Assembly (NCBI GenBank): GCA_047974625.1
Contig: JBKECK010000016.1
Coordinates: forward strand, 2,262-66,261
DNA length: 64,000 nucleotides
DNA from: Acidimicrobiales bacterium
GTDB lineage: Bacteria; Actinomycetota; Acidimicrobiia; Acidimicrobiales; SZUA-35
Reading direction: 5' to 3'
Shown here: in pieces, positions 954 through 58,129 of the stretch
How positions within the stretch are numbered: position 1 is the first letter of the stretch
How the letters are laid out: each line of letters begins with the position of its first letter
Position numbers and translations under genes: made by a program
Notes under the pieces: model-generated
Databases searched by the model: none
Told to the model about the DNA's origin: nothing
What the model saw: the letters and a program-made list of their open reading frames with translations, nothing else

Positions 954-3623
954 ATGGACCTCGAACGCCTAGCGCTCCTGTTCGGTGACGAGGTGTTGGA
1001 TGCCCTCGACGAGTTCGACCTCGACCACGAGGCGGGCCGGCTGGAACTGGTCGAACGGTTCGCCGGCCTGCCGGCCGGTCCAACCGAACCCGGCGGCCGG
1101 GCCGGCCTGCGCGCCGTCATCGTCAACCAGGTCCTGGACGACGATCCACCCCACACCTGGTCGACCGTCCAACGGCTCCACGACCTGGGCCTCGACGGCC
1201 GACAGATCCTGTCGCAGCTGGCCATCGTGGTGGGTGAACAGCTGTCCGCCGCCCTGGCCGACGACCAGCCGTTCGCCGTCGACGACTATGTGCAGGCCCT
1301 CGACGACCTGCCCCTCCCCGAACGCTCCGACGTCGCTGATCGGATCGTCACCGCCGTCCGCAGCGGGTCGGGCCCCGATGCCTCCGAGTGCCTCAACGCG
1401 GTGATCTCCTCGTACCAGCCGCTCGCCGGCGCCGTGATCGAGCGGCAGGTCGATCAGGTCTTCGACCGGATGCTCGGCGGACCGCTCCACCTCCTCCCCG
1501 ACGACCGCGTCGTCCTGCTCCCCGATCTGGTGGACGGCACCACGTTCACCCACCGGCTCACCGACATCGAGTGCGACCTCGGCGCCCTCACCGTCTCGTT
1601 CGATCTGGCCGCCTTCGATCGGCTCGACCTGGTGCGGCTGGCCGACGGGACCGAACTGGAGCCGTTCTCGGTCGAGGACGGCCACCTCGGGTGGGGTGGA
1701 CCGGAGGGATGGCTGGCCCGATTCGAACCGGGTGCGCTGATCAGCTGCACCGTGGCGGTCGATCCCTCGGGCGAACCAGGTGTCGACCCCGTGGCGGCCA
1801 CCATCACGGTCGAGGCCGCCGACCACGAACCGGCCGTGACCGACGCGGCCGCCGGCCTCGTCCGGGCCGGGTACGACCGCCTCACCGCCGAGCTGGCCCT
1901 ACCGGTGGCGGCCGACGATCTCGTGTGGTGGCTGCTGTTCCACCACCGTGACCTGTTCGCCGAGCTCCAACCACCGCTCGCCGACCTGTGCGACGCGGCC
2001 AGCCTAGAGCGTCGGGGCAGCGAGCTGGGTCATGACGAGGATGTGTGGCGCACCCAGTTGTTCGTCCAGCGGTTCCGCCAGGCCGCCGCCCTGGTGCCCG
2101 AGCCCCGGTGGCGGCAGGTCCTGAGCAACGCCCTCCAGGTGCTCGACGATCCGGACGCTCCGATCGACGATGTCCGGTCCGCCCTCGCCGAGACCGCCGC
2201 ACCCGAGGTGCTCGACGCCCTGGCCGACGCCCTCTTTCCCCACCACCTCTCGTTGGAGGACCAGTTCGAGCTGGGCTGGGCCGACGCACCCGGACGCCTG
2301 TTCGAGCTGGTCGGGCGAGCCACCGCGGTGGCCCGCCGTCCCGCCGAGGTGGCCACAGCCGAGTACCTCTCCGCCGTGCTCCACGAGCGGTGCGGGGCCC
2401 CCGAGACGGCTGAGGACCACCTCAAACGGGCGGCCGAGGCCCAACCCCGGCTGGGCCCGGTGGTGGAACGGCTCGGCTGGTACCGGTTCGACCGGGGCGA
2501 CGCCTCCAGTGCGATGCAGTGGTGGCGCACCCTGTCCACCCTCCCAGAGGCGGCCCGCACCATCGAGCCGTTCCTCTCCCCCACCGGCGGGGCGTCCCGG
2601 ATCGGCCGCAACGACCTCTGCTGGTGCGGGTCGGGCCGCAAGTTCAAACGGTGCCACCAGGGTTCCGCCGCGCTCCCCGCCCTGCCCGACCGGGTCGGCT
2701 GGCTGTGCCGTAAGGCGTCGCTGTGGATCGACCACAGCACCGGCGACGTCCGCCGCTCGATCGTCGAGCTGGCCTGGGCCTGGGCCTCCGGCGACCCAGA
2801 CGGCGACCCGGTCGACCTGGCCTCCATCGACGACGAGGCCGACTTCCAGCGGATCGGCGAGGCCTTCTCCGATCCCATCCTGTTCGACGCCGCCCTCCAC
2901 GAGGGGGGTCTCTACAGGCTGTTCCTGTACGAGCGCGGCGTCCTGCTACCCGAGGACGAGCAGCTCCTGGTCACCTCGTGGACGGCCGTCGACCGCAGTG
3001 TGCACGAGGTGGTGGCCGTCGACCCCGGGGTGGGCGTGACCCTGCGCGACCTCGCCACCGGCGAGGTGCTCGAGGTCCAGGAACGGACGGCCAGTACAAC
3101 GATGGGGGTCGGTGAACGCTATTGCGCCCGGGTGGTTCCCGACGGCGTCGGCCACCAGATCATCGGTGGGGTGTTCCCGGTGCGCACCGGGAACGAGGTC
3201 ACCGTGCTCGATCTGTGCGCCGCCCACGACCCCATGGCCCTGTGCGCCTGGGCGGGGGCGCGGCTACGTCCGCCCCAACTGGTCCACCGGCCCGGCCTCA
3301 TCGACGAGATGTTCGACCGGGACGCCATCGAGACCCTGCTCCAGAACGCCGACGACGACCCCGACACAGCCATGGCCACCGTCCGGACCGAGCTGGCCCG
3401 CCAGGCCCAGGCGCGATGGCTCGACGACCACATCCCCGCCCTCGGTGGCCTGACACCACGGGAGGCCGCCGCCGACCCCACCCGGCGGGAACAGCTCGAA
3501 CGGCTGCTGGCCGAGTTCGAGACGGACGGTCGCCGGGGCCCGAGCGGGCCGGACCTGCCCGACGGTTTCACCCCGTTCCGTTACGACGTCGACGCCATGC
3601 GTCGGGAGCTGGGCCTGGGCTGA
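954..3623 (+). CDS. SEC-C motif protein with TPR-like segment
   Basis: 889 aa; IGRNDLCWCGSGRKFKRCH SEC-C motif; C-terminal WLDDHIPALGGLTPREA motif. Confidence 0.8.
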   Translation: MDLERLALLFGDEVLDALDEFDLDHEAGRLELVERFAGLPAGPTEPGGRAGLRAVIVNQVLDDDPPHTWSTVQRLHDLGLDGRQILSQLAIVVGEQLSAALADDQPFAVDDYVQALDDLPLPERSDVADRIVTAVRSGSGPDASECLNAVISSYQPLAGAVIERQVDQVFDRMLGGPLHLLPDDRVVLLPDLVDGTTFTHRLTDIECDLGALTVSFDLAAFDRLDLVRLADGTELEPFSVEDGHLGWGGPEGWLARFEPGALISCTVAVDPSGEPGVDPVAATITVEAADHEPAVTDAAAGLVRAGYDRLTAELALPVAADDLVWWLLFHHRDLFAELQPPLADLCDAASLERRGSELGHDEDVWRTQLFVQRFRQAAALVPEPRWRQVLSNALQVLDDPDAPIDDVRSALAETAAPEVLDALADALFPHHLSLEDQFELGWADAPGRLFELVGRATAVARRPAEVATAEYLSAVLHERCGAPETAEDHLKRAAEAQPRLGPVVERLGWYRFDRGDASSAMQWWRTLSTLPEAARTIEPFLSPTGGASRIGRNDLCWCGSGRKFKRCHQGSAALPALPDRVGWLCRKASLWIDHSTGDVRRSIVELAWAWASGDPDGDPVDLASIDDEADFQRIGEAFSDPILFDAALHEGGLYRLFLYERGVLLPEDEQLLVTSWTAVDRSVHEVVAVDPGVGVTLRDLATGEVLEVQERTASTTMGVGERYCARVVPDGVGHQIIGGVFPVRTGNEVTVLDLCAAHDPMALCAWAGARLRPPQLVHRPGLIDEMFDRDAIETLLQNADDDPDTAMATVRTELARQAQARWLDDHIPALGGLTPREAAADPTRREQLERLLAEFETDGRRGPSGPDLPDGFTPFRYDVDAMRRELGLG

Positions 3624-3662
3624 GCCCCGGGTGAGACCGGCCGGCCATTCTCACCGGCCGGG

Positions 3663-4736
3663 TTACCCGCCCGCCCGCAGGCCGTCGACGTAGTCGATCA
3701 GGAACGCTACGTCGTCCTCCAGGGGGCGGAAGAGGGAACGGTCGGTGTGGTTGCGCGACACCGGGACCACGAGGTCACGGTCCCGGTCGTCGAAAGAGGC
3801 CACGATCAGGCCGTCGCCGCTGTACGACTCGGCCACGGTGTGAGCGGCGATCACATGACCGCCGTTGCCCTCGATGAACTCGAGGCAGCGGCGGTGGGTG
3901 AGCGGCGAGTCGGAGAACAAGTAGTGGTGGGTGGAGACCACCACGAACCGGACGGCACCGGCGGCGATGGCGTCCCGGGCCCCGAGGAGGGCGTCGTACT
4001 CCACCCCCTGCACGTCGAGGTGGAGGATGTCGCAACGATCCACCTGCCCCGCCGACCGCAGACCGTCCAGCGACACGATCGTGGTGGTGGTCGACTCGGA
4101 CGGGTCGGAGTCGAGGGGCAGGGTGACCGGGGCGCCGTGGTCAGATCCGGCCGCTCCGTCCAGGAAGGTGATCCGGTCGGTCATGGTGTTGAGCCGGGCG
4201 TTGCGTTCGCCCAGGGCCCGGTTGTGGTGATCGGGCTCGACGGCGATCGCCCGGCCGTCGGGCCAGCGGTGGCCGACCCACAGCGAGTAGTAGGCCCAGT
4301 ACGACCCGAACTCGACGATGGTGGGGGCCGGGTCGAGCCGTTCCACGATGGCGACGAACGCCCGCTCCTCCTGGGGCTCGTGGAAACCGCCGAGGCCCTC
4401 GATGATCTCGGTCATCCACGGTCCGCAGTAGCCGTCGGCCTCCACTACCAACCCGTTGTGGAGGACCTGGACCCGCTGGCCGTCGCGGTCCACCACCGCC
4501 CCGGCCCCGGGCACCCGGTCCAGATCGGCCGTGTCCCGGCAGGAGGTGGTCATGGCCACCCGCTGGGCGTCGCTAAGGCGGCCGATGCGGGGGGCGCTCA
4601 ACAGAACCTCCAGACCCGACGGTGGCGTCGGCTGGTCGGGCGGCACCGAGGCGTCGTCCCCGGGCGGCGCCGCCCCGAACCAACCGGCGAGAACTCGTGA
4701 CGACGGGCGCAGGCGCCGACCGAACCCAGAGAGCAT
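3663..4736 (-). CDS. FkbM-family SAM methyltransferase
   Basis: IVEFGSYWAYYS, AVEP, DILHLDVQGVE motifs; start placed at ATG 4736 because the longer ORF overlaps the divergent MFS gene. Confidence 0.75.
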   Translation of the reverse strand: MLSGFGRRLRPSSRVLAGWFGAAPPGDDASVPPDQPTPPSGLEVLLSAPRIGRLSDAQRVAMTTSCRDTADLDRVPGAGAVVDRDGQRVQVLHNGLVVEADGYCGPWMTEIIEGLGGFHEPQEERAFVAIVERLDPAPTIVEFGSYWAYYSLWVGHRWPDGRAIAVEPDHHNRALGERNARLNTMTDRITFLDGAAGSDHGAPVTLPLDSDPSESTTTTIVSLDGLRSAGQVDRCDILHLDVQGVEYDALLGARDAIAAGAVRFVVVSTHHYLFSDSPLTHRRCLEFIEGNGGHVIAAHTVAESYSGDGLIVASFDDRDRDLVVPVSRNHTDRSLFRPLEDDVAFLIDYVDGLRAGG

Positions 4737-10206: not shown

Positions 10207-10700
10207 TGTCAAGGGCCATCGGGATCTGCCCAGTGGCGGACGTGAGATGTGCCCGCTGACGGTCACGAGAACCACCGGTCCGGGGGTACTCAGGCCAAGG
10301 GGCTCACCCCCTGGCCAGCGAGTGCCTGGGTGAGTCGCACGGAGTCGCCACTGGTTTGGCAGAGGTAGGCGTGGTGCAGCAGCCGGTCGACGGTGGCGGT
10401 CCAACCCCTCGGCAGCGTCGGCACCGACCGGCAAACAGGCCAATGCCGTCCGCCACGACCAAATCGGCACGCAGCACACGGGCGATAGCTTGGTGACGGT
10501 GTCGTCGGCACGATGCTGTCGCAGCAGTACCCCGACGTCTTCCAGGGTGAACCAGGCGACCTTCAACCCCTGCTCGACTGCCTGCTGGCCGAGGGCCTGG
10601 GGTAGGAACGTATTCCCGGTCCCGGACGGACCGCACACCACCAGGTTCTCCCGGCGATGCACCCACTCCAGGTTCCGTGGTGCCTGCTGGGTCTCATCAC
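10207..10700 (-). mobile_element. istB: IS21-family remnant (istB pseudogene plus terminal repeat)
   Basis: WVHRRENLVVCGPSGTGNT (degenerate Walker A), TVDRLLHHAYLCQTSGDSVRL in shifted frames; end begins TGTCAAGGGCC with internal TGCCC..TG.CGG repeats. Confidence 0.75.
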
Positions 10701-11452
10701 CTCGAAGGACACGAACCTTACGAAGTCGCACGTGCTGAAGGGCCCTGGGTTTGTTGGGCCTCGCGCGCCTTTCGTGGGTCGGTCGCACGAGTGGCCGTTC
10801 GTGCCGCTGTAGCCAAGGGCTGGAGTCGCTCTGAGGCCAACCCCGCAGCGAAGCGGAGGGGGCGGCAGGACAACGAGCGAAGCGAGGCGTCAGCCCTGGT
10901 CAAGGCGGCGGCGTGACCCATCAGCAGCGCCACTGGCCGCGTGAGCGGTCGCGTCAAGCCCGCAACGCTGGCGGTGTCGTTGGGGTCGGCTCGGCCCCGC
11001 TGGGCCTGCCGTCGAGGTGCGCTCCTCGCTCGGTCGGCCGCAGCAGCCATCAAAGAGCAGAAACCCCAGGTACCACGCGGCCTCAACACCTCAGCGGCGT
11101 ATCGACTCACCCACGACAGGCGCGCGGGCGCCCGATTCCGAGATCGACCAGCAGTACCGGAAGCTCTTGGCAGAGTTCTCACACCCAGATGTACACGAGC
11201 CCATCAGCGACCGGTGGCTTCCGGCAGTCACCGGCCGACCTGAGCCGAACTCCAGTTGAGCGCAAGATCGATCGGAGGAAGCCGTCCGCTTGGAGCGCCG
11301 AAACTGCTTTCGGGCATCGACATTGCAGGCGATCAAGGAGGACAGCCAGCAGACAGCCAGATGGTTCCCGATAGACCGCGGCACTCAGATGTTCGACCGA
11401 TGTTCGACGCCGCCCCTCCGGCCCCCTCGCCCCACCCACCGGCCCCGCCCCC

Positions 11453-11512
11453 AAATCCACGAAACCCCGCCCGAGCCTTGGCGGCCTGGAGCGGGGTTCG
11501 GGTGCCTCGGGC
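11453..11512. repeat. 60-bp direct repeat copy 2, just downstream of tRNA-Ala
   Basis: Identical to 8250-8309. Confidence 0.9.
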
Positions 11513-11517
11513 GGTTG

Positions 11518-11590
11518 TGGAGCTAAGGAGAATTGAACTCCTGACCTCTTCCATGCCATGGAAGCGCTCTACCAACTGAGCTATAGCCCC
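11518..11590 (-). tRNA. tRNA-Ala(GGC)
   Basis: GGGGCTATAGCTCAGTTGGTAGAGCGCTTCCATGGCATGGAAGAGGTCAGGAGTTCAATTCTCCTTAGCTCCA; CCA not encoded. Confidence 0.97.
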
Positions 11591-11723
11591 GAGCGGAAGA
11601 TGATCCTACCGCGCCCCGAGCCGTTCCCAACCCGATTTGCAGGCGTCGAGGATCGGGGCGTCGGACACGCCGACGCCGTCGCCTCGCCCCGGACGGAACC
11701 GGGCGGCCGGTACCCTCCAAACG

Positions 11724-12386
11724 ATGACGAGTTCCCTTGCCGCCGCCATCGTCCTGGCCGCCGGCCTGGGCACCCGGTTCGGCCGGGCCAAGCAGTTCGA
11801 GATGGTGGCCGGCAGCCGCCTGGTCGACCGGTCGGTCCGGTTCGCCACCGAGGCCACGGGCCGCCCACCGGTGGTCGCCCTACCGGCCGGGGTGACCTGG
11901 GACGGCCCGGAGGTGGCCGCCGCGGTGACCGGCGGCGACGCCCGCCCGGAGTCGGTCCGTGCCGCCTTGGCCGCTGTCGACCCCGACGCCCAGATCGTCG
12001 TGGTGCACGACATCGCCTTCCCGCTCGCTTCGGTGGCCACGGTCCGGGCCGGGATCGCGGCCATCGAGGCCGGCGCCGACTGTGCCGTGCCCACCTGGTC
12101 GCTGCCCGACACCATCAAGCGGGTGCGGCCCGACGGCACCCTCGGGCACATCGGCCGGGAGGGCTATCTGATCGCCCAGGGGCCGATGTCGTTCCGGGCC
12201 TCGATGCTCCGGGCTCTGTACGCCGAGCCGGGCAACGCGCCGCTGGAGGACTCGATCGGGATCGAACAGCTCGGCGGCCGAGTGGTGCCCGTCGAGGGCG
12301 ACCGCTGGTCACCCCACATCGTGCAGCCTCGCGATCTCGACCTGGTCGGCCGGATCCTCGACACCGGCGGTCTCCCCCCACTCTGA
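11724..12386 (+). CDS. IspD/TarI-family cytidylyltransferase
   Basis: IVLAAGLGTRFGRAKQF, GGDARPESV, VVVHD, DTIKRV; may be a divergent paralogue. Confidence 0.75.
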   Translation: MTSSLAAAIVLAAGLGTRFGRAKQFEMVAGSRLVDRSVRFATEATGRPPVVALPAGVTWDGPEVAAAVTGGDARPESVRAALAAVDPDAQIVVVHDIAFPLASVATVRAGIAAIEAGADCAVPTWSLPDTIKRVRPDGTLGHIGREGYLIAQGPMSFRASMLRALYAEPGNAPLEDSIGIEQLGGRVVPVEGDRWSPHIVQPRDLDLVGRILDTGGLPPL

Positions 12387-12505
12387 GCCCCAGGGAACCG
12401 CGCCCGTGCTCCACCCGAAACCCGAACACCGACGGACGGACGATCGGCCACCCCAACCCTGAGCGCCGGACGGGGCCGCCGACGGCGCGGTCCGGGCCGG
12501 GCCGA

Positions 12506-13801
12506 CTACACCGAGAACGTCCGGGTCTGCTCGGCCCGGAGCTCGTCGATCAGGCGGCCGGCGGGCACTTCGACGTCGGCGTAGGTGATGCAGTGGTCCT
12601 GGGGCACGTCGCGCACCAGCACGCAGCCCTCGGCCACCCCCTGGGGCAGGAGGTCCTCCGCGGCGGTGAGGGCGGCCGTCTCACACTCCCCGTAGGTGTG
12701 GTAGCCGCCCAGCTGGTCGAGCACGGTGCCGGCCGGCAGGTCGGTCTTGGCCCGGGTGATGACCTCCACCCGGGGCCCGTCGAGGGGCTGCATGACGGGA
12801 TCACCGGCCAGGACGGCCCGGGCCACCGATGTGGGCACCTCGAAGTGGCAGAGGTGGTACGGGGTGTAGAACGAGTAGAGCGGACCCTCCCCCAGCTTGT
12901 AGAGGTTGAGGTAGTGCCGCTGTTTCGGGTCGTCGTGGGTGCCGAACACGTACACGCCGGGTCCGGGTTTGGCCCCCACCACGTAGTCGACGACACCGCC
13001 CAACTTCTGGAGTTCCTCGATGTCGTAGAGCGAGGTGGCGCCGTCGATCTGCTCGGTCCAGTCGCAGCCCTCCATGCCCCGACTGGACACGGTCATGCCG
13101 GTGGCGTTGGCCACGATGGCCTGTTCGAAGCTGATCTTGGTCCCGTCGGCGAAACTGGTCACCATGTGGACGTTCTGGCCCCACTGACGGGCGAACCCCT
13201 CCTGGGTGGTGGGGTTTCGGTAGCGGTCCTGCAGGCCCTTGATGTTGCCGCACACCAGTGGGGTCACCCCGATCCCGGTGACGAACCGGTACAGGTTCAT
13301 CTGCACCCCGGGCTGGTCGCCGTCACACGCGGTCAGGATCACGCCGTTGGCGTCGGCCCGCCGCTTCAGTATCGGTCCGACCGTGCCGTCGAGTTCGGCG
13401 TTCATGAGGACGACGTGTTGGCCGTGGTCGATGGCCTCGACGGTGGCGTGGGCCCCGTACTCGACGGCGCCGGTCACCTCCACCATCGCCTCGATCGACG
13501 GGGCCTGACACACCACGGACGGATCGTCGGTCACCGCCACCTTGCCGGCGGCCACCACGGCGTCGAGTTCGGCCGGGGTCGACACCGAGACGATGTCCGC
13601 CGGGTCGATCCCGGCCTCGACGTAGGCGTCCACGGCCTGTTGGGGGCGCCGGGCGGCCACCGCGGCAACCTCCATCCCCGGGGTCGAGTTCACGACCTGG
13701 TTGACCAGGCCGCGGCCCATGAAGCCGCAGCCCACCATGGCGAACCGGACGGGGTTGCCCTCAGCGGAGCGTTCGGCCAGTGCTCGATCGACGATGATCA
13801 T
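12506..13801 (-). CDS. NAD(P)-dependent oxidoreductase (homoserine dehydrogenase-like) with C-terminal SAF domain
   Basis: VGCGFMGRG, DGDQPG, SFADGTKISFE, PYHLCHFE, SAF-type AKTDLPAGTVLD. Confidence 0.85.
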   Translation of the reverse strand: MIIVDRALAERSAEGNPVRFAMVGCGFMGRGLVNQVVNSTPGMEVAAVAARRPQQAVDAYVEAGIDPADIVSVSTPAELDAVVAAGKVAVTDDPSVVCQAPSIEAMVEVTGAVEYGAHATVEAIDHGQHVVLMNAELDGTVGPILKRRADANGVILTACDGDQPGVQMNLYRFVTGIGVTPLVCGNIKGLQDRYRNPTTQEGFARQWGQNVHMVTSFADGTKISFEQAIVANATGMTVSSRGMEGCDWTEQIDGATSLYDIEELQKLGGVVDYVVGAKPGPGVYVFGTHDDPKQRHYLNLYKLGEGPLYSFYTPYHLCHFEVPTSVARAVLAGDPVMQPLDGPRVEVITRAKTDLPAGTVLDQLGGYHTYGECETAALTAAEDLLPQGVAEGCVLVRDVPQDHCITYADVEVPAGRLIDELRAEQTRTFSV

Positions 13802-47365: not shown

Positions 47366-47443
47366 CGGGATGTGGCGCAGTTTGGCTAGCGCACCTGCTT
47401 TGGGAGCAGGGGGTCGGGAGTTCAAATCTCCCCATCCCGACCA
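47366..47443 (+). tRNA. tRNA-Pro(TGG)
   Basis: CGGGATGTGGCGCAGTTTGGCTAGCGCACCTGCTTTGGGAGCAGGGGGTCGGGAGTTCAAATCTCCCCATCCCGACCA. Confidence 0.97.
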
Positions 47444-48427: not shown

Positions 48428-48563
48428 CCGAACCCTCCTCTCGGGGCCCGGACAACAGCCCCCGAGGAAGAGCGCGAACGGAGGCTGCATGATCCACGAA
48501 CGGCGAACAAACAGCTTCGCCCCGCGGGCGATCTCCACCGTTGATGCACACCAGTGTCGCAAC

Positions 48564-49122
48564 GTGCATCAGGACCGGAGTTTGGCGGAGCTCGTCCAGG
48601 GGGCCCAAACAGGTGATCGAGCAGCGTGGTGCGAGCTCGCCGACAGCTACAACAACACATGGTGTGGTCAGTCGTCCGTAGCTTCCGCCTGCCCGACGAT
48701 GACGCTGCGGACGCGGCCCAGATGGCGTGGCTCCGCGCCCTTGAACATCTCGGTACGGTGCGCGACCTAGAGCGGATCGGGCTGTGGTTGGCCACGATTA
48801 CCCGACGCGAGTGCCTCCGGCTCATCGAGCGTCGCACTCGGCACGACGGTGGACCTCGGCGATGACGCCCCACGTCGTCCCCGACCTCAGCGTCGACGTC
48901 GAAGCGGAGACCGTCAGCATCCACGAAGCGCAGCGAGTCGTGCTGGCCCTTCGACACCTAGCCGCCGACTGGCAAGCCTTGCTGCGGATGGTCTTGACCG
49001 AACCCGCACCCAGCTACCGCGAGATCGCAGCGGCGCTCGACATCGCGGTCGGCACGATCGGTCCGCGCCGAGCGCGATGCCTGAGCAGTCTCCGCGCCGC
49101 GTACAACAACCTGCCGGGCTGA
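48564..49122 (+). pseudogene. ECF sigma factor split across three frames
   Basis: LVQGAQTGDRAAWCEL / VWSVVRSFRL..DAADAAQMAWLR..WLATITRRECLR / SYREIAAALDIAVGTIGPRRARCL. Confidence 0.8.
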
Positions 49123-49260: not shown

Positions 49261-49821
49261 GTGACCCTGGTGGCCACCGCCGCTCCGAGCCCACGACGAG
49301 GTGAACGACCCCTGGCACCTGGTCTCGTCCACGTCCAACACGACCCGGCGGCTGCCGTCGAGGTGCAACTGACGGACCGGATCGATGTCGAAGGTCCATC
49401 CGTGGTCCGCATCGTCCGTGCCGACGGCCTTCCCGCCCAGTTGGCAATCGCCGCCGTGGCCGCCAACGACATCTCTGCTGCCCTCACCCTCGACGAGGTC
49501 GAGCAAGTGGCGGCGGTCGCGAGCTCCGTGGCCCAAGGCATCTCGTGCCTGACCGCAGGCGTCATCCACCACGCTCGATCCATGGCGATCCTGAACGATC
49601 GGCAGCTCGAGGTGGTCAAGCTCCTCGCCCTCGGGCTGAGCAACGAGTGCATCGCCGAGCGGGCACACATTTCCGTCTCGACCTTGAAGCGAGAACTGCG
49701 GGCGCTCCGGAGTCTGACCGACTGCGACGACCGAGCAAGCGTGCTCGAACGACTGGCTATCTCGCCGACCGCAACCTGGCCAGATAGCCGGCCGCGGCGC
49801 AGAGACTCAGCGGATCTTTGA
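49261..49821 (+). CDS. LuxR C-terminal HTH regulator
   Basis: LNDRQLEVVKLLALGLSNECIAERAHISVSTLK. Confidence 0.8.
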   Translation: MTLVATAAPSPRRGERPLAPGLVHVQHDPAAAVEVQLTDRIDVEGPSVVRIVRADGLPAQLAIAAVAANDISAALTLDEVEQVAAVASSVAQGISCLTAGVIHHARSMAILNDRQLEVVKLLALGLSNECIAERAHISVSTLKRELRALRSLTDCDDRASVLERLAISPTATWPDSRPRRRDSADL

Positions 49822-50012: not shown

Positions 50013-51170
50013 GTGACCGTTCACGAATCAGGCCCCACCACGGGCGTCCAGCATGCAGACGCTGTCCCGGCATTTCGGGACAGCGTCTTGCTGCTCGAGC
50101 ACAACGACGGCGCGATCGATGCGCTGATCACGACGACCCGGGAGGTGAAGACCTTCCGACCGACGTCGACCTGTACGGCGCTGCTGCCCGCTATCGACGG
50201 ACTGCGGTCGACCAGCGACCTCGTCGAGGCGCTCACGTCGGACGGCCACGAACGCCAAGACGTGCTCGACGTACTCACGGTGCTCGAGCGGGAGCGGCTA
50301 GTGGTTGACCGTTCGACCACGAGTTTGGTTGCGGCCCATCCCCTCCGGGATCGCCGCGACCGGTTCTTGGCCGAAGGTGCGCTCAACCCTGCGGCCGGGT
50401 GGCCAGCGTCGTCGGCCGACATGCGTGGTCGTCTCGAAACGACATCCGTCGCCGTCCTCGGCACCGGGGGCCTCGGGACTTGGATCGCCCGATCTCTGGC
50501 CGGGCTGGGCGTCGGGGAACTGATCCTCATCGACGCCGACGTGGTCGAGGAGCAGAACCTCGCCCATCAAGTCGTGTTCACCCGTGACGACATCGGCCGC
50601 GCCAAGGTGGAGTCGCTCCGCGACCGCCTGGAATCGCTGTTTCCCGACGTGTCGGTCCGAGCCGAACGGCGGTTCGTCGAAACGGCGGACCAGCTGACCA
50701 CGGTCGTCGACGGCGCCGCCTTCGTGACCACTGCGGCCAACACGCCGACAGCGAACGCCGTCGCCCGACTCGTTTCGACCGCTTGCCTCCCACTCGGGAT
50801 CCCCCACAATGTTGGCGCTGGCTACAGCCACGACCTCGGCACGGTGGGGCTCACAGTGCTTCCCGGTGTCACTGCGTGCTGGGAGTGCCTCCAAAGCTCC
50901 CTGTCGGATCCGGTGTTCGACGCCACTCGGGTGCTCCGACCCGCCCGGTCCCCCGTTGGCATGGTGCCGATGGTGGCCGGGATCCTGGCCAACCTCGTGG
51001 CGTGGGACGTCTTCCGGGTCGTCACCGGGGCCACACCCGTACTGGCTGGCGCAATCACCGAGATCTCACTCTCCCGGCTCGAGTTCTCGGCCCGGCCCGT
51101 CATCCCCAACCCAAGCTGTCCGTGCGGGGCAGCGACCCTCAAGGAGAGCACCGATGGCACAAGGTCCTGA
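50013..51170 (+). CDS. RRE-fused ThiF/MccB/PaaA-type adenylyltransferase
   Basis: N-terminal winged-helix-like LLPAIDGLRSTSDLVEAL...VLDVLTVLERERLV; VLGTGGLG, DADVVEEQNLAHQ, DIGRAK, CWEC...CPC; start uncertain. Confidence 0.88.
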   Translation: MTVHESGPTTGVQHADAVPAFRDSVLLLEHNDGAIDALITTTREVKTFRPTSTCTALLPAIDGLRSTSDLVEALTSDGHERQDVLDVLTVLERERLVVDRSTTSLVAAHPLRDRRDRFLAEGALNPAAGWPASSADMRGRLETTSVAVLGTGGLGTWIARSLAGLGVGELILIDADVVEEQNLAHQVVFTRDDIGRAKVESLRDRLESLFPDVSVRAERRFVETADQLTTVVDGAAFVTTAANTPTANAVARLVSTACLPLGIPHNVGAGYSHDLGTVGLTVLPGVTACWECLQSSLSDPVFDATRVLRPARSPVGMVPMVAGILANLVAWDVFRVVTGATPVLAGAITEISLSRLEFSARPVIPNPSCPCGAATLKESTDGTRS

Positions 51171-52122
51171 GTCCCTGGTCGACCCGTGGCGGGCGTACCA
51201 GCACCCCCTCTTCTATCAACGCGTGGGCTTGCTGAACCCCGCCGACCGGTGGGACGTACTCACGACGCTGCGGTCCGCTGAGATCGCCTCACCCGAGTCC
51301 CGGCCGGTGTGGGAGCGACTGCTCCCCCACTTTCGGGAACGCCTGGCTCTGTCGCCGATGCACGCAGTCGACGAACTCGACGAACTCGCAGTACGCGCTG
51401 TCGGCCACGCGCTGAACCGCAATCTGCACACCACGGCGATCATCGCCGCGCTCGCCGCCGGCACCCCGATCGACGCCGTGGTGGACGTGTCGACGAGTGC
51501 GACCCTTCGCAGCGCCGTGGCGGCGCGAGGCTCAGCCATCGTGCTGCCCGTGCATGCCCGTGCCATCGAGGCCGGGGTCTTCGCCCTGTCTCGAGTCATG
51601 CCGACCACCTTGGTAGTGTCGCAAACGGCGGGCATACCCGACGACACGACGCCGTTCGAGGATCTCGTCGGACCCACCGACCTCCAGGTGCTTCGGGCAC
51701 CCGACAACCGCGTCCTCGTCCGTTGCGTCAAGGCAGCCCGGTCCGGACGAGTCCTGGTCCTGCCACCAGAGTTCACCAGCAACGACCATGACATGGTGAT
51801 CCCGTACGAACTGGCAGGACGCCAGATCGGCGTGCCCTCGGCCTACGTCGAACTGGCTCGGCGGCTCGACCTCCCCCTCGTCCCCATGCTGTTCGAGCAA
51901 CGGGCCGACTCGGGCTACCAGTGGATCCTCGACGGCCCGTTCGAACCCGATGACCTCACCGGTGGCGTACCGACCGTCATCGGCCGGGTCTTCGCCATGG
52001 TCGAGGCCGTCCTCTCCGAGGATCCCACCGAATGGGAGGGCTGGTACATGTTCGACCGCATGATCGCGGACGGCGAACGCCTGGCGATGACCCCGGCCGC
52101 GCCACCGCTCGTTACTGCCTGA
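51154..52122 (+). CDS. LpxL/HtrB-like (LPLAT) acyltransferase
   Basis: AGGAG RBS; HARAIE (H-x4-E), GRVLVLPPE, LARRLDLPLVP, DPTEWEGW. Confidence 0.78.
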   Translation: MAQGPESLVDPWRAYQHPLFYQRVGLLNPADRWDVLTTLRSAEIASPESRPVWERLLPHFRERLALSPMHAVDELDELAVRAVGHALNRNLHTTAIIAALAAGTPIDAVVDVSTSATLRSAVAARGSAIVLPVHARAIEAGVFALSRVMPTTLVVSQTAGIPDDTTPFEDLVGPTDLQVLRAPDNRVLVRCVKAARSGRVLVLPPEFTSNDHDMVIPYELAGRQIGVPSAYVELARRLDLPLVPMLFEQRADSGYQWILDGPFEPDDLTGGVPTVIGRVFAMVEAVLSEDPTEWEGWYMFDRMIADGERLAMTPAAPPLVTA

Positions 52123-52191: not shown

Positions 52192-52251
52192 ATGACCATC
52201 GAGACTCGTGAACTCGAAGTCGGAGCGCTGAGCTTCTGCGGCGAGAACTGA
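52192..52251 (+). CDS. Putative RiPP precursor A1: MTIETRELEVGALSFCGEN
   Basis: AAAGGGGGTG RBS, ATG...TGA; paralogue of 52317-52376. Confidence 0.88.
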   Translation: MTIETRELEVGALSFCGEN

Positions 52252-52316: not shown

Positions 52317-52376
52317 ATGACCATCGAAACCCGCACCCTGGAGCAAGGGGCCTTGAGCTTCTGCACCGAGAACTGA
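52317..52376 (+). CDS. Putative RiPP precursor A2: MTIETRTLEQGALSFCTEN
   Basis: GAGGAGGTG RBS; 16/19 aa identical to A1, with synonymous DNA differences. Confidence 0.88.
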   Translation: MTIETRTLEQGALSFCTEN

Positions 52377-52380
52377 TCAA

Positions 52381-52416
52381 GAGCTGCTGGTGGGGGCGAG
52401 CGCCCCCCCAGCGCTC
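52381..52416 (+). terminator. GC-rich stem-loop after the precursor genes
   Basis: GAGC-TGCTGG-TGGGGGC...GCCCCC-CCAGC-GCTC; no U-tract. Confidence 0.55.
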
Positions 52417-52457
52417 CCATTCATGCCCCCGCTCCCAAACGTTCACTCGGATTCCGT

Positions 52458-53546
52458 ATGCGCCATCTCATCTCGACTCTCAACAGCCCCACGGACTGGG
52501 TCGCCGTCGCGTCCTACGACGGCGCCGAGACCACGATCCATGGGTCCTCGGGCGCTACCGGGGCATCCCTACCGTTGGGGTCGTTCTCCAAGGCCGTGCT
52601 GGCACTGGCGATGCGCCACGACCGTGACTTCATCCGGTCTCGAATCACCGTGCGCGGGGAGGCCTGGCCCGTTTCGATCAACGATTTGCTTTCGCATCAC
52701 CGCCGAGTCGGACCACCGGGGGTCCCCGTCTACGCCTACGACGACGAACGCTTCCGTCTCGCCGTGGAGCACTACCTGACCCGGCACCAGTGCAGCGTCC
52801 TCGACCTTCCCGCTGTGGTAGCCGACGCCATCGGGATGCGGGTGACGCTGATCGACCCGGTCCGACCGGAGCGAGGACTGGCCACCTCCCCGCCCGAGCT
52901 GCGTCACATGCTGGCGATGGCTCGCGGCCTCGTGGCCCTCGATCCGCCGACGGACGACCCCAGCGGTCACCTACTCCTCGGAGCGGCGGTGAGCACCCCC
53001 CAGTTCCGAACCGGATCCCCGTTCTTCTGGTCGGACGACCCCACCCTCGTACTCCAGCACGGTGGCATCGTCGACCGACACGCGGTGCTCATGGTACTCG
53101 CGCCTGCGCTCGACCGTGGCTTCGTGCTCGCCCTGCACGCCTCCGACGGCGCCGAGAGCGGTGTCCACGCGCAGCGGGAGGTGAGCGCCCGTGTCTGCTG
53201 CGAGCTCGCCATTCCGACCGACCCCGTGACCGACCGATCCCGGTTGCACGGTCACCCCGACCTCGAGGTCGACGGGCTCTACTCGGACGGACGCGATCGG
53301 CTCCGCATCTGCGGGGATTCCACGTATGTGATGGTCGAGCCGTCCGATGGACCAGCCCGTGCCACCAGGCGGATCGGCCGGCACGCCTTCGTCGACGTGG
53401 CGCATCCGGCGCCGTGGCGCTACGCCCACACCTTCTTCACCCCGTCCCCCCGGCCGGACGATGACCGGCACGAACCGGTCATCGGTGTGGTACTCGACCA
53501 ACGCAGCTACCTCCGCCAGCCCGAGTCGGAATCGGTGACGCGGTGA
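52458..53546 (+). CDS. Beta-lactamase/PBP-fold serine hydrolase (divergent)
   Basis: GSFSK (SxxK), INDLLSH, YAYDD, QHGG. Confidence 0.7.
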   Translation: MRHLISTLNSPTDWVAVASYDGAETTIHGSSGATGASLPLGSFSKAVLALAMRHDRDFIRSRITVRGEAWPVSINDLLSHHRRVGPPGVPVYAYDDERFRLAVEHYLTRHQCSVLDLPAVVADAIGMRVTLIDPVRPERGLATSPPELRHMLAMARGLVALDPPTDDPSGHLLLGAAVSTPQFRTGSPFFWSDDPTLVLQHGGIVDRHAVLMVLAPALDRGFVLALHASDGAESGVHAQREVSARVCCELAIPTDPVTDRSRLHGHPDLEVDGLYSDGRDRLRICGDSTYVMVEPSDGPARATRRIGRHAFVDVAHPAPWRYAHTFFTPSPRPDDDRHEPVIGVVLDQRSYLRQPESESVTR

Positions 53547-54796
53547 CGGCCCCGACCCGGTCGACACCGGGCCCATCCTCCGGCTCGAGCGCTGCCACCA
53601 GAGGCTGGGTGGACCGGTGCGGCTGTCCCCGATGTCTGGGCCGGCAACTGGACGGGAGCTGGTTGACCCAACCGCCGACAACCCGACTCCGCCGGCAGGT
53701 CGTCGACCCCGACGCGCTGTTGAGCCAGCGGAGCCTCGAACGCCTGGCCACCGACCCCCGCACCACGACCAACAGCCGACGCAACGGAGACCGCCAGCGG
53801 CACGACGGGCACCACGCGCTCCTGAGTCGACTCGCCGAGGGAGCCACGGTTCAGATCCAGAACTGCGAACGGAGCGACGCCGGCCTGGCGCTCGTGTGTG
53901 CCGAACTCCAGCGCCTGGCGCTCGGCACGACCGTCGGCTGCAACGCCTACCTCTCCCCCGACGCTGGGGTGCCTGGGCTCACCCCACACCGCGATGCCAC
54001 CCACACCACCATCGTGCAGATCCACGGGACCAAGGAATGGACCGTATGGGCAACCACCCCACCCCCGAACGCGGAGACCCTGGCCGAAGGCCCATGGTCT
54101 CCGAGCCGGGACCCCCGAGCCGAAGTGGTCATCCAGGCCGATCTGCGTCCGGGCGACGTGCTCCAGATTGCGCTCGGCGACCCCCATGTGGCGTTGTGCC
54201 GATCGGGTCCCTCCGTCCACCTCACGTTCGCCCACCGACCAGTCCGATCCAGCGATGTGCTGGCGTGGGTGGCTGATCGGCTCGCGCAGCGAGACGCAGC
54301 CGACCAACAGTGGTGTGCGACCACCGTCCCCGAAGGCTTCGACGACTGGCTGCGAGGCCAACTGGCGGCGCTGACCACTCGGGTCAGCCTGTTGTCGAAC
54401 GAGAAGGGCAGCGCAGCGGCGGCCGCAGCGGTGCTCCACGGACGCCGGCTCGACGACGACGGCTCACTCCGACCACCCCATCGAGACGACGGTCATGTTG
54501 TCGGGCTCCGACTGGCCGCCGCAGCAGGCGAACTGGACCCCGAGACCCGCATCGGGGCATCGCCCCAGCTCCTTGCCGGTCCCTCCGCCGACCGGCAAGG
54601 AGCGGAAGCAAGCGATTCCGCTGGCGTACGGTCCCGGCTCCTCGACCAACTCCTGAATGAACCGCACAGCACCACGACCATCAGCGACCTCCGAGCCCGA
54701 CTGGCTCCCGCCATCGCGACCTCGGCCGACTTCGGAGCCCTGCACGCCGCCGACCTCGTGTGGCTGTGGCCGCCGGAAGGATCCCGATGCTGGTGA
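53543..54796 (+). CDS. JmjC/cupin 2OG-Fe(II) oxygenase (YcfD/ROX-like)
   Basis: GCNAYLSP, PHRD, QIHGTKEW, LRPGDVL...PH facial triad. Confidence 0.85.
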   Translation: MTAPTRSTPGPSSGSSAATRGWVDRCGCPRCLGRQLDGSWLTQPPTTRLRRQVVDPDALLSQRSLERLATDPRTTTNSRRNGDRQRHDGHHALLSRLAEGATVQIQNCERSDAGLALVCAELQRLALGTTVGCNAYLSPDAGVPGLTPHRDATHTTIVQIHGTKEWTVWATTPPPNAETLAEGPWSPSRDPRAEVVIQADLRPGDVLQIALGDPHVALCRSGPSVHLTFAHRPVRSSDVLAWVADRLAQRDAADQQWCATTVPEGFDDWLRGQLAALTTRVSLLSNEKGSAAAAAAVLHGRRLDDDGSLRPPHRDDGHVVGLRLAAAAGELDPETRIGASPQLLAGPSADRQGAEASDSAGVRSRLLDQLLNEPHSTTTISDLRARLAPAIATSADFGALHAADLVWLWPPEGSRCW

Positions 54797-55686
54797 TCGA
54801 GGGGGTGCACAAGCGCTACGGCGACGCCGTTGTGCTGCGCGGCGTCGACATGCAGGTGGAACCCGGCCAGGTCGTCGGCCTGCTCGGACGGAACGGGGCC
54901 GGCAAAACCACGCTGCTGTCGATCGTGGCCGGCCTGCTCCGGGCCGACACCGGCACCGTGTCCCTCGACGGGCACGATGCAGTGGCCGACCGCCAGTACC
55001 TCATGGCCCGGCTGGGGTTCGTTCCCCAGAACCTCAGCGTCTACCCGACCCTCACGGTCGAAGCCAACCTCCGCTTCTTCGCTGACCTCCGGATGGTGCC
55101 GCGTGCCGATCGCAACCGGGCCATCACCCGGGTGGCCGATCATCTTCTCCTCGACCAACTCCTCGACCGGAAGGTGGGCCAGCTGTCAGGCGGCGAACAA
55201 CGCCGACTCCATGCCGCCATCGGACTCCTGGGCCGACCGCGAGTGGTGCTTCTCGACGAGCCCACCGCAGGAGCCGACGCCGCGACTCGATCCCATCTCC
55301 TCAACGCCGTTCGGGCGTTGGCCGTCGAGGACGGTACGGCCTGTGTCTACACCAGCCACTACACCCCCGAGATCGAGACGATCGCCGATCGGGTTGCCGT
55401 CCTGCACCACGGCAAGGTCCGAACCTGGGGCAGTGTCGAGTCCGTCATCGAGGCCCACGGCCGGACCACGCTCGATCTCAGTTTCTGCCGACCGGTCTCA
55501 GCGGGCGCCTGGGGACACCACGCACTCGACCACGTCCGTATCGATACCGAACACCCCAGTGAAACCCTGGCCAAGGTCCTGGCCGAACTGGAGGCCGACG
55601 CGTCGGCCCTTTCGTCGGTGGACATCAGCCGACCCAGCCTGGAGTCGGCCTACCTGGCCCTGACCGAGGAGCCCGAAGTTCGATGA
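54787..55686 (+). CDS. ABC exporter ATP-binding protein 1
   Basis: GRNGAGKTT, LSGGE, LLDEPT, TSH. Confidence 0.95.
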   Translation: MLVIEGVHKRYGDAVVLRGVDMQVEPGQVVGLLGRNGAGKTTLLSIVAGLLRADTGTVSLDGHDAVADRQYLMARLGFVPQNLSVYPTLTVEANLRFFADLRMVPRADRNRAITRVADHLLLDQLLDRKVGQLSGGEQRRLHAAIGLLGRPRVVLLDEPTAGADAATRSHLLNAVRALAVEDGTACVYTSHYTPEIETIADRVAVLHHGKVRTWGSVESVIEAHGRTTLDLSFCRPVSAGAWGHHALDHVRIDTEHPSETLAKVLAELEADASALSSVDISRPSLESAYLALTEEPEVR

Positions 55687-56468
55687 CCCGTCACCGTGGC
55701 CGAGCCGTCCACCGCATGACCACGCTCGCCCGCCAGGACCTCCGACTCTTGCTCGCCGACCCCATACCCACCCTGATGCTGCCCGTGATGGCCGTCGGGT
55801 TGATGACTTTCATCGAGCCCGCGTTCGACGCTGTGATCGCCGATCACTACGGGCCAGGATTTGGTGGAGCCGAGCAGGCCGTGCCGGGCATGGCCGTCAT
55901 GTTCGGCTTCTTCCTCGTGGCCAACGGAGCGTTCGCCTTGTTCCGGGAGCACGAATGGAACACGTGGGTGCGGTTGCGGGTCAGCGAGATTCGCGCCGTC
56001 GATGTCCTCGTCGGCAAGGCCCTGCTACCGGTCACGATCGCGCTGCTCTACTTCGTGGTGGTGTTCGGGTTCGGGTTCACCGTGCTCGGGCTTCACCGGC
56101 CGAGCAGCTTCGCTGCCCTCGCCCTGGTCGTTCTGGCCTTCTCAGTGACCCTGGCCAGCCTGTCATTGGCGCTGGTGGCCATGGCGCGGTCGGTGATGGA
56201 GGTCAACGCACTCGGGAGCCTGTGTTCGCTGCTCTTCGCCGGCCTGGGCGGCGCACTCACGCCGTATGAGGTGCTTCCCGCCTGGGCCCGCGCCATCTCA
56301 TGGATCTCACCCGGCTACTGGGCGATGGAGGGTTTCCGGGCCGGAATCCTGGTGTCGGAGCCGACCCGGGCGGCAATGTGTGCCATGGTCCTGCTGGGGT
56401 TCGCCGCGGGGTTCTCGACGCTCGCCGGACTTCGATTCCGGATGGACGAGACGAAGGCCACGGCCTGA
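55683..56468 (+). CDS. ABC-2 permease 1
   Basis: Six TM segments; FREHEWNTWVRL; GGALTP..LPAW..SPGYW. Confidence 0.9.
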   Translation: MTRHRGRAVHRMTTLARQDLRLLLADPIPTLMLPVMAVGLMTFIEPAFDAVIADHYGPGFGGAEQAVPGMAVMFGFFLVANGAFALFREHEWNTWVRLRVSEIRAVDVLVGKALLPVTIALLYFVVVFGFGFTVLGLHRPSSFAALALVVLAFSVTLASLSLALVAMARSVMEVNALGSLCSLLFAGLGGALTPYEVLPAWARAISWISPGYWAMEGFRAGILVSEPTRAAMCAMVLLGFAAGFSTLAGLRFRMDETKATA

Positions 56469-56480
56469 GGGAGGTTCGCC

Positions 56481-57401
56481 ATGTCGGTGATCACAGTTCG
56501 CAACGTCGTCAAGTCCTACGGCAAGCAGCCCGTCCTGCGCGGAGTCGATCTCCACGTCGAGCGAGGTGAGGTTCTGGGTCTGCTCGGGCGGAACGGGGCC
56601 GGCAAGTCCACGCTGGTCGAATGCATGCAGGGTTTGCGAACCATCGACGGGGGCGTGATCGACGTTCTCGGCATCCACCCGTCCCGCGACCAACGGGCAC
56701 TCCATCGAGTCATCGGGAGCCAACTCCAGTCGTCAGGCCTCCCCGACCGACTTCGGGTCCGTGAGGCCATTCGCGTCTTCGCCCGAAACCCCCGCGCCGA
56801 CGTGGACGAGATCCTGGACCAGAACGACCTCACGGCGATCAGCTCCAAGTACGTCGGGCGCCTCTCCGGGGGTCAACGGCAACGCTTGTTCGTGGCGCTC
56901 GCGTGGCTCGACAACCCCCAGGTCGTGTTCCTCGACGAGATGACGCAGGGTCTCGACGCCGAGGCCCGGGAGGCGGTCTGGAGTGACGTCAAACGTCGGC
57001 AGGGTGCCGATACCACCATCGTCGTCGTCTCCCACTTCGCCGACGAACTCGAGGCCCTGTGCGACCGAGTCGCCGTGCTGGCCGACGGTCGGATCACCGC
57101 CACGGGCAGTCCGGCCGAGCTGCTCGACACCTTTGGTCTTCCGGCGGCGCTGGAGCTAGACCAGGAGCCGCTCCTGGAGTGGTTCCGTCACGTACCAGGA
57201 GTCCGGTTGGAGCAGACCAGATCGGGTTGGCGGGTGTGGTTTCCGCCCAAGTCGCTGCCGGCGGTCGGCGCAGCGCTCGACGCCGCTGGGTACGACGGTG
57301 CCGTAGCCATGCGACCAGCCAACCTGGGCGATGTGCTCCGCCACACAAGCGATCCGGTCGTCACGTCAGGTCCCACCACGAAGGAGGTCACGCAGGTATG
57401 A
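56481..57401 (+). CDS. ABC exporter ATP-binding protein 2
   Basis: GRNGAGKST, LSGGQ, VFLDE, VSH. Confidence 0.95.
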   Translation: MSVITVRNVVKSYGKQPVLRGVDLHVERGEVLGLLGRNGAGKSTLVECMQGLRTIDGGVIDVLGIHPSRDQRALHRVIGSQLQSSGLPDRLRVREAIRVFARNPRADVDEILDQNDLTAISSKYVGRLSGGQRQRLFVALAWLDNPQVVFLDEMTQGLDAEAREAVWSDVKRRQGADTTIVVVSHFADELEALCDRVAVLADGRITATGSPAELLDTFGLPAALELDQEPLLEWFRHVPGVRLEQTRSGWRVWFPPKSLPAVGAALDAAGYDGAVAMRPANLGDVLRHTSDPVVTSGPTTKEVTQV

Positions 57402-58129
57402 GTCGGTTGATCACAATGGAACTGCGGCTCCTCACCCGAGACCCAGCCGCGCTGATCTACGTACTGGCGTTCCCGGTGCTGACCGCCACCCTCCTCGGTC
57501 AGGTGTTCGGCCCTGGCGGGCCGGAGTTCGAAGGCATCGCACCACCCACCTACTACGCCTACGCCTATGTCGGCGTGGTAGCCGCAGCGATGGCCCTCGT
57601 GACTCTGCCTGGCCATCTGGCCACCTACCGCGTCACGGGCGTACTCCTCCGATTCCGCGCCTCTAGGTTCGGGGCAGGCGGCCTCGGGGCTGCGGTCGTT
57701 GTGGTGTCGGCCGCCACGATCGTCGTCGCTTCCACCGCGCTGCTGGCCACGACGGCGACCTTGTTCGGGCTCCCGCCGATTCGCTCGATCTTCGGACTGG
57801 TCGCCAACTTCGCCGCCGGAACGGCGGCCATCGTCGGGCTCGGGGTGCTCCTCGGTCAGATCACTGGTTCCCCTCGTTCGGCGCAAGGCCTGGGTCTTGC
57901 CTTGTTCTTTCCCTCCTTCCTCTTGGGGGGCGCCGGGCCTCCAATGGCCTCCATGGGAGCGCCACTGCAGCGAGTCAGCGAGTTCCTGCCGCTCTCCCAC
58001 ATGATTCGGGGGATGCAGGAGGCGGCGTTGGAGCTCCCCGCTGACGGGTGGAACCACGCGCTCGTCTCGTGCGGATTCGCCACCGTCTTCTGGAGCATCG
58101 TCGTCGCGACCGAGCGTCGCGCGACCTAG
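57398..58129 (+). CDS. ABC-2 permease 2
   Basis: ATGA overlap; ELRLLTRDP, YRVTGVLLRF, FLPLSH. Confidence 0.9.
   Translation: MSRLITMELRLLTRDPAALIYVLAFPVLTATLLGQVFGPGGPEFEGIAPPTYYAYAYVGVVAAAMALVTLPGHLATYRVTGVLLRFRASRFGAGGLGAAVVVVSAATIVVASTALLATTATLFGLPPIRSIFGLVANFAAGTAAIVGLGVLLGQITGSPRSAQGLGLALFFPSFLLGGAGPPMASMGAPLQRVSEFLPLSHMIRGMQEAALELPADGWNHALVSCGFATVFWSIVVATERRAT

Follow-up and report, generated by a model that had tools for sequence, protein, structure and literature searches.

What does an enzyme of the lipid A/lysophospholipid acyltransferase (LPLAT) type acylate when its gene lies between a ThiF-family gene and two short peptide genes? The question is raised by a gene at positions 51154..52122 of the 64,000-nucleotide stretch analyzed here (the window), which comes from contig JBKECK010000016.1 of an Acidimicrobiales bacterium (GenBank assembly GCA_047974625.1). 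Sequence context places this gene in an operon with a ThiF protein carrying a RiPP (ribosomally made, post-translationally modified peptide) recognition element (RRE), two precursor peptides, a serine hydrolase, a JmjC protein, and ABC exporters. With slightly better than even confidence, we propose that the acyltransferase fatty-acylates the cluster peptide, likely at Cys, and that the RRE of ThiF presents the peptide to it. Acylation at Cys is favored because the minimal unit in which the gene recurs consists of precursor, ThiF, acyltransferase, and exporter, and because Cys is common to all precursors. The core genes of the window are as follows.

50013..51170, + strand: MccB-like RRE-ThiF protein, 385 aa (sequence and structure search; β3-α3 RRE at residues 25-93)
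51154..52122, + strand: LpxM/PatA-fold acyltransferase (PF03279), 322 aa (open reading frame call, family scans, AlphaFold2 model, and alignment)
52192..52251, + strand: precursor peptide 1, 19 aa, C-terminus F-C-G-E-N (open reading frame with purine-rich ribosome-binding site)
52317..52376, + strand: precursor peptide 2, 19 aa, C-terminus F-C-T-E-N (open reading frame with ribosome-binding site)

Fold and active site of the acyltransferase

The open reading frame (ORF) of the acyltransferase runs from an ATG at 51154 to a TGA at 52122 and encodes 322 residues, and its close homologs start at the equivalent Met. A 437-residue ORF starting at 50809 was ruled out as a shadow of the ThiF frame by the homolog starts and by the GC content by codon position (0.56/0.83/0.67 in the upstream extension vs 0.73/0.48/0.82 inside the gene). 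The stop codon of ThiF at 51170 creates a 17-nt overlap with the acyltransferase start, and 69 nt separate the acyltransferase stop from the first precursor start at 52192, which agrees with the arrangement described in a first-pass annotation made from the sequence alone.

That annotation had called the product a lipid A/LPLAT-type acyltransferase, and its predicted structure bears this out. The AlphaFold2 model (pLDDT 92.6, pTM 0.90) matches LpxM (5knk; Z 17.5, rmsd 4.0, 254 residues aligned) and PatA (7ojt; Z 16.6, rmsd 3.8, 238 residues aligned), and the third-ranked match is far lower (Z 6.5). A structure search of the Atlas returned a row labeled PF03279 (TM 0.71), in agreement with this fold. 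On the basis of the model, the enzyme is assigned the LpxM/PatA α/β fold. The Pfam profile search that had been suggested as a check gave a divided answer: the acyltransferase alone scores 12.3 bits against PF03279 (E 0.098), below the curated cut-off of 22.3, but 41 of 46 relatives match at E ≤ 0.05, and the scores of 31 exceed the cut-off (50 relatives were collected, and four short ones were left out of the Pfam scan). A PDB sequence search using the alignment of close relatives gave no significant match. As noted earlier, there is no obvious N-terminal transmembrane anchor. The highest 19-residue hydropathy within the first 70 residues is 0.14; the PatA stretches compared are likewise low (0.63-1.12), so this value is no proof of a soluble protein. 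No RRE or transmembrane helix was seen in the model. Longer or fused forms, including fusions to ThiF, were absent from 7994 candidates, which is a weak test.

Three motif blocks are present, namely H134-x4-E139, PPEF (E206), and W-x-x-W near the C-terminus. The last is borne by every row of the family alignment (W294 and W297 invariant, 46/46). The H-x4-E motif emphasized in the first-pass annotation is present, and H134 is conserved (44/46). E139 occurs in just 16/46 rows, and H-x4-E as the catalytic motif was therefore rejected. An acid at position 206 is found in 45/46 rows and aligns to the block-3 Asp in 31/31 PatA rows. In PatA of Mycobacterium smegmatis, H126A and E200A (block 3) are inactive, and D131A of the HX4D motif retains 37% activity (PMC4792965, excerpts). 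H134 and E206 are likely the catalytic pair, counterparts of PatA H126 and E200, because both are conserved in the family and because the PatA mutants point to the block-3 acid rather than to the HX4D Asp.

Identity with the housekeeping PatA was rejected on three grounds. A single PF03279 gene of the genome exceeds the cut-off, a separate patA on another contig between pgsA-like and pimA-like ORFs (neighbor names assigned by reading translations); the acyltransferase is 19% identical to this PatA over 283 columns; and in a quick maximum-likelihood tree, all 31 PatA rows group together in a clade (SH-aLRT 99), with the acyltransferase and its close relatives outside it. The closest homologs are thus not housekeeping PatA enzymes. 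The D-R-D and Q-W-H blocks of PatA are absent from the acyltransferase, with P-E-[FY] and W-x-x-W in their place. Nor is the enzyme an LpxL/LpxM ortholog: its N-terminus has no hydrophobic segment, and Actinomycetota are not known to have lipid A.

As judged from genome searches, the acyltransferase is a rare accessory gene with patchy occurrence. It has no match in 59 related genomes, 11 of them of the same genus, and 400 genomes of the class gave PatA-level scores only (at most 88 bits vs 411 bits for the acyltransferase against itself). Phylum samples of 400 genomes yielded one match (beside a PimA-like gene) and nine matches; none of the nine, which all bear the Q-W-H block, has a ThiF gene within 1.5 kb. 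A metagenome scan with the alignment of close relatives retained 0 of 113 candidates.

Recurrence with ThiF and Cys-bearing precursors

Gene context, available for a minority of the 50 relatives, was read at five subfamily loci. Three of these carry ThiF and Cys peptides and represent distinct ThiF-linked clusters, one is uninformative, and one is contrary. The ThiF-linked clusters, with Cys-bearing precursors of 19-20 residues, occur in two Actinomycetota genomes and on plasmids of Lactiplantibacillus plantarum.

A GTDB-wide pattern scan returned one relative from 37 candidate stretches, located in an Acidimicrobiaceae metagenome-assembled genome (L003). Its gene order is that of the window: ThiF (39% identity), acyltransferase (48%), precursor, hydrolase (27%), JmjC (36%), ABC ATPase (56%), and permease. 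Here, too, ThiF overlaps the start of the acyltransferase, and the single precursor of 20 residues ends in L-C-G-A-N. No acyltransferase relative was found in the other genomes of this family (0/96). JmjC and the ABC ATPase, which have separate ORFs in the window, share one 742-residue frame at 10333-12561 (+) of L003, through either fusion or loss of a stop codon. Upstream of the cluster in L003, a pair of neighboring BrxC/BrxD-like ATPase genes (2404-4599, -) suggests an adjoining defense island.

Among 72,556 plasmid records, the subfamily queries P0042, P0014, and P0024 matched only two L. plantarum plasmids; P0001, P0032, and P0048 had no match, and the match of P0036 was an ordinary LPLAT inside a lipid operon. 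The unit on these plasmids is unannotated.

L083 4276-6879 (NZ_CP028335; also NZ_CP025416): two tandem 19-aa precursors with N-G-S-C ends, ThiF, major facilitator superfamily (MFS) transporter, and divergent acyltransferase

The L. plantarum acyltransferase, annotated as hypothetical, shows the His, P-E-F, and W-x-x-W blocks. Against a subfamily profile from which it had been excluded, it reaches 179 bits, vs 77-100 bits for PatA-type and ordinary LPLAT rows. The accompanying ThiFs rank third and fourth among plasmid matches to the ThiF of the window and form the second-best ThiF family. Neither JmjC nor a peptidase is found in this unit, and ThiF and the acyltransferase thus make up the core. 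The synteny of L003 and the plasmids with ThiF and precursors corroborate the earlier assignment of the gene to a peptide cluster together with ThiF, and the gene is present in both homologous units. NZ_CP076826 holds another copy of the plasmid unit (L035), whose similarity to L083 ends close upstream of ThiF, at an IS3 element that replaces the part farther upstream.

The precursors carry the argument for the acceptor. Peptides 1 and 2 of the window differ by eight synonymous and three non-synonymous codons and are under purifying selection. Their motif has no further match in the genome, and the precursor DNA pattern had 0 matches in viral contigs. The three actinobacterial precursors share the consensus I-x-x-R-x-L-E-x-G-A-L-x-x-C-x-x-N, in which Cys and Asn are fixed (3/3). 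Core Ser/Thr is not fixed, and a Ser/Thr acceptor is disfavored by the L003 core, which has neither. In all three clusters, Cys lies within the last four residues of every precursor, with Asn three residues apart. The ThiF that best matches the window's in the plasmid collection, from Nonomuraea, follows the same logic from the other side: its precursor ends in Asn and has no Cys, and no acyltransferase lies within 8 kb, which fits Cys as the acceptor. The control ThiF loci without an acyltransferase number five (the interrupted copy L035 and L043, of only 2.6 kb, were not counted). In an unannotated record of Nonomuraea gerenzanensis (L034, 7819-9086), an MccB-like ThiF with an intact active site follows a short ORF ending in S-H-G-N, a candidate microcin-C-like cluster.

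A metagenome search of 173 candidates provided the remaining two loci. L036 starts at the acyltransferase gene, so that the upstream region is unseen, and continues with an ABC ATPase 53% identical to that of the window. At L037, 3 kb of sequence contain neither a ThiF nor a precursor match. On this contig (1-3064), the distant acyltransferase lies between opposite-strand methyltransferase-like and FabF-type ketosynthase-like ORFs (labels by eye).

The L037 neighborhood bears on the alternative that a host membrane lipid is acylated for immunity, export, or membrane remodeling and that the peptide is never touched. Characterized members of the fold act on lipids, the L037 relative adjoins a ketosynthase-like ORF rather than a ThiF gene, and an RRE is missing from the acyltransferase itself. 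Such a role would leave unexplained why the acyltransferase start overlaps the ThiF stop, why the gene sits between ThiF and precursor in two genomes, and why it stays linked to ThiF and precursors across phyla; the D-R-D and Q-W-H blocks of PatA are also missing. We regard acylation of a host lipid as unlikely.

Several observations weigh against acylation of the peptide at Cys. To our knowledge, the acceptors of characterized LPLAT-family members are lipid or glycolipid hydroxyls, never thiols. The distinct clusters read number only three, as the L. plantarum unit comes from two almost identical plasmids (99.7%), and the acyltransferase of these plasmids is transcribed divergently from the precursors and ThiF. 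The position of Cys differs among the clusters (C-x-x-N in Actinomycetota and N-x-x-C in L. plantarum), and the correlation between Cys and the acyltransferase rests on the single negative case of Nonomuraea. No acyl-carrier or acyl-ligase gene was recognized in the window cluster, and, to judge from the L037 neighborhood, the subfamily may also serve fatty-acid clusters.

ThiF, the acceptor, and the remaining genes

MccB is the top PDB match of ThiF both by sequence and by fold. The GxGGxG P-loop, N182/Q186, K198, the Arg finger, Y271 (equivalent to MccB Y239), and the Zn cysteines are retained, but H185 stands for the ATP-binding Arg and N243 for the Mg-binding Asp (MccB D214). In the clade of the window's ThiF (support 99), the Arg of N-L-x-R-Q is replaced by His or Asn and the Asp by Asn in 4/4 members, whereas both are kept in 11/11 of the next-nearest ThiFs and 28/29 MoeB-type controls; the one control that deviates is a row with a stop codon and a faulty alignment. 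The register of the Asp relative to MoeB may shift by one, the loop being without Asp regardless. An extra Arg follows the Arg finger. ThiF Arg70 and Asp127 bind ATP and Mg (PMC12596934, excerpts), and EnfB D225A is inactive (PMC11256085, excerpts). The window-clade ThiF may accordingly be only an adaptor, a natural role for a leader-binding ThiF beside an acyltransferase without its own RRE and one with a parallel in the pathways of LAPs (linear peptides that contain azol(in)es). With the P-loop, Lys, Arg finger, Tyr, and Zn cysteines all retained and the extra Arg in place, a changed chemistry is no less possible than inactivity. Because the L. plantarum ThiF keeps both Arg and Asp, we rejected the view that any ThiF linked to an acyltransferase is a pseudo-enzyme and limit the adaptor idea to one branch. 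Some more distant RRE-ThiFs have a methyltransferase-like gene instead of the acyltransferase, fused in P0069 (by Pfam) and adjoining at L047 7910-8758 and L050 9381-10208 (by eye).

The MccB likeness suggests another product, a microcin-C-like peptidyl-nucleotide in which the ribose, or a hydroxyl made by JmjC (e.g., β-hydroxy-Asn), is O-acylated. MccB is the closest match of ThiF, the Y239 equivalent is retained, O-acylation of sugars is normal PatA chemistry, and JmjC is kept in both actinobacterial clusters. Asn is the last residue of each of the three actinobacterial precursors and is the sole strict requirement for microcin C (McC) (PMC8323819, in part). The loss of the D214 and Arg equivalents from all four members of the window's ThiF clade, with the inactivity of the EnfB mutant, argues against adenylation of this kind, and the L. 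plantarum precursors end in Cys in a unit without JmjC. This product is therefore improbable. A related idea of the first-pass annotation is self-resistance by acylation, analogous to MccE; the group acylated would be the free amino group of the processed toxic aminoacyl-nucleotide. This idea would draw on the Asn-ending precursors, the MccB-like neighbor, and the frequency of immunity enzymes in mcc clusters. MccE2 is a GNAT acetyltransferase of another fold (PMC8323819, in part), the peptidyl-nucleotide is itself doubtful in the window cluster, and the acyltransferase gene is placed among the core biosynthetic genes and is likewise found with precursors that end in Cys. We give self-resistance very little credence.

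Conversely, the peptide could be the acyl donor. ThiF would activate its C-terminus, and the acyltransferase would transfer the peptide from a thioester or Cys thiolactone to the hydroxyl of a membrane lipid; the result would be an E1-type, ATG8-like conjugate of peptide and lipid. The minimal core consists of ThiF and the acyltransferase, and the glycyl-transferase AlmG is reportedly a precedent. The fold uses thioester donors, as in PatA (PMC4792965, excerpts), and ThiF/MccB-type enzymes yield activated C-termini and, in GrcB, Cys thiolactones (PMC12596934, excerpts). This is doubtful in view of the ATP-binding Arg and Mg-binding Asp missing in the window's ThiF clade (4/4), the dedicated ABC-2 and MFS exporters, which suit a small released product, and the C-terminal Cys, which could hardly form a thiolactone with its own carboxylate. 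It also enters a broader proposal that we put forward tentatively and rate below an even chance: ThiF and the LpxM/PatA-fold acyltransferase may define an undescribed RiPP class that S-acylates Cys or, most boldly, moves an E1-activated peptide onto a membrane lipid, with the E1 of Acidimicrobiia decayed to a leader-binding adaptor.

Fatty acylation at Cys would proceed as follows. The RRE of ThiF would bind the precursor leader (L-E-x-G-A-L in the window), and ThiF would adenylate the C-terminus, as expected of the intact L. plantarum enzyme, or serve mainly as an adaptor in the window's clade, which has lost Arg and Asp. H134, tuned by E206, would deprotonate the acceptor for attack on an acyl-CoA or acyl-carrier-protein thioester, as in PatA. 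As branch-specific tailoring, JmjC might hydroxylate the peptide or acyl chain and the serine hydrolase trim the leader. The ABC systems would then export a short lipopeptide, possibly a signal or an antimicrobial. Among the acceptors proposed earlier (Ser/Cys/Thr, the new N-terminus, or the nucleotide), peptide lipidation stands as the best reading on account of the Cys in all precursors; Ser/Thr is not kept in the L003 core, and two findings cast doubt on the nucleotide: in L. plantarum the last precursor residue is Cys instead of Asn, and two adenylation residues are missing from the ThiF of the window.

The following features complete the surroundings of the core genes.

49261..49821, + strand: LuxR-type helix-turn-helix regulator, upstream of the operon (family scans)
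52381..52417, + strand: GC-rich hairpin behind the precursor genes (folding energy of an 81-nt stretch, -31.5 kcal/mol; z -2.4)
52458..53546, + strand: beta-lactamase-fold serine hydrolase (S-x-x-K, Y-x-D, and H-G-G motifs)
53543..54796, + strand: JmjC (PF08007) 2-oxoglutarate/Fe oxygenase (iron ligands H-R-D at 149 and a distal His near 215)
54787..56468, + strand: ABC-2 exporter 1, ATPase 54787-55686 and permease 55683-56468 (family scans; 52-60% identity to L003)
56481..58129, + strand: ABC-2 exporter 2, ATPase 56481-57401 and permease 57398-58129 (family scans)

The hairpin is likely an mRNA stabilizer or attenuator. The serine hydrolase is a candidate leader peptidase; it has no Pfam match itself, and its L003 ortholog matches PF00144 (E 2e-8). 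The JmjC protein is a candidate hydroxylase. No second exporter was found in L003, nor a counterpart of the LuxR-type regulator, whose membership in the operon is therefore uncertain. Upstream of this regulator, ECF (extracytoplasmic function) sigma-factor-like sequence extends over several frames (48489-49122, +), with a region-4 piece at 48784-49122 that weakly matches Sigma70_r4; it is likely a frameshifted pseudogene. A promoter and terminator scan found sites no more common than in shuffled sequences. Left of the cluster region, a tRNA-Pro gene (47366-47443, +) follows clpX/clpP/tig and is a possible integration site; the acyltransferase gene lies 3.7 kb downstream of it. The flanking genes, tig and an acetyl-CoA hydrolase gene, are both present in 5/5 congeners without being neighbors there.

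Relation to known systems

We found no report of an LpxL/PatA-type enzyme in a RiPP pathway, or of its pairing with ThiF, in the full-text literature, with supplements and subscription journals outside this scope. The word acyltransferase is unmentioned in ThiF reviews and RRE and McC papers (PMC12250964, PMC7470986, PMC12710340, PMC6495379, PMC11256085, and bioRxiv 2020.03.04.977132), although supplements (e.g., PMC8323819 Table S1, Fig. 6) could show such clusters; OxzA is the sole acyltransferase named in PMC12596934. If peptide acylation is correct, ribosomal peptides modified by an enzyme of the LpxM/PatA fold would be a new route to lipopeptides, possibly with enzymatic Cys acylation in bacteria, and ThiF/MccB proteins would gain a new role, including perhaps that of an adaptor and pseudo-enzyme. 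The compact plasmid unit of L. plantarum (two enzymes, precursor, and pump) comes from a culturable food-fermentation organism and is directly expressible.

The acyltransferase resembles PatA and LpxM/LpxL in its fold (Z 16.6 and 17.5), its catalytic His and block-3 acid, and, as in the PatA rows, the lack of a strong N-terminal hydrophobic segment. It differs from PatA in its low identity, its place outside the clade, its position away from pgsA/pimA, its rarity, and its link to ThiF and peptide genes. With microcin C clusters (MccA/MccB, particularly the long-precursor group, e.g., the 19-residue precursor of Bacillus amyloliquefaciens), the window cluster shares the RRE-ThiF, the Y239 equivalent, Asn-ending precursors of 19-20 residues, and an exporter. 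Unlike those clusters, it has a Cys four residues from the precursor end, replacements of the ATP-binding Arg and Mg-binding Asp, and, where those carry MccD/E/F/H, genes for LPLAT, JmjC, and serine hydrolase proteins; in the related L. plantarum unit, the last residue of the precursors is Cys.

ThiF working with a Cys near the C-terminus recalls GRC-type RiPPs (the Glu-Cys thiolactone of GrcB), and a ThiF homolog that serves peptide binding only is known from LAP pathways; the window cluster differs from both in having no radical SAM or YcaO protein and in a ThiF that still holds most ATP-site residues. The lipo-RiPPs (selidamides, lipolanthines, goadvionins, lipoavitides, and aphotorhaptins) share a dedicated acyltransferase and, likely, the attachment of fatty acyl to a peptide of ribosomal origin. 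Those listed in a 2026 paper are modified by GNAT enzymes at Lys/Orn or the N-terminus, and lipid A/LPLAT enzymes are unmentioned there (PMC13647313, excerpts). Family scans of the operon recognized ThiF, PF03279, JmjC, and ABC only, and not the GNAT-type acyltransferase paired with a lanthionine-like core in known lipo-RiPP classes. Unlike in the lipo-RiPPs, the enzyme of the window has the LpxM/PatA fold, its partner is ThiF, and no Lys is conserved in the cores; the cluster is a real, conserved, and apparently undescribed variant of lipo-RiPP biosynthesis.

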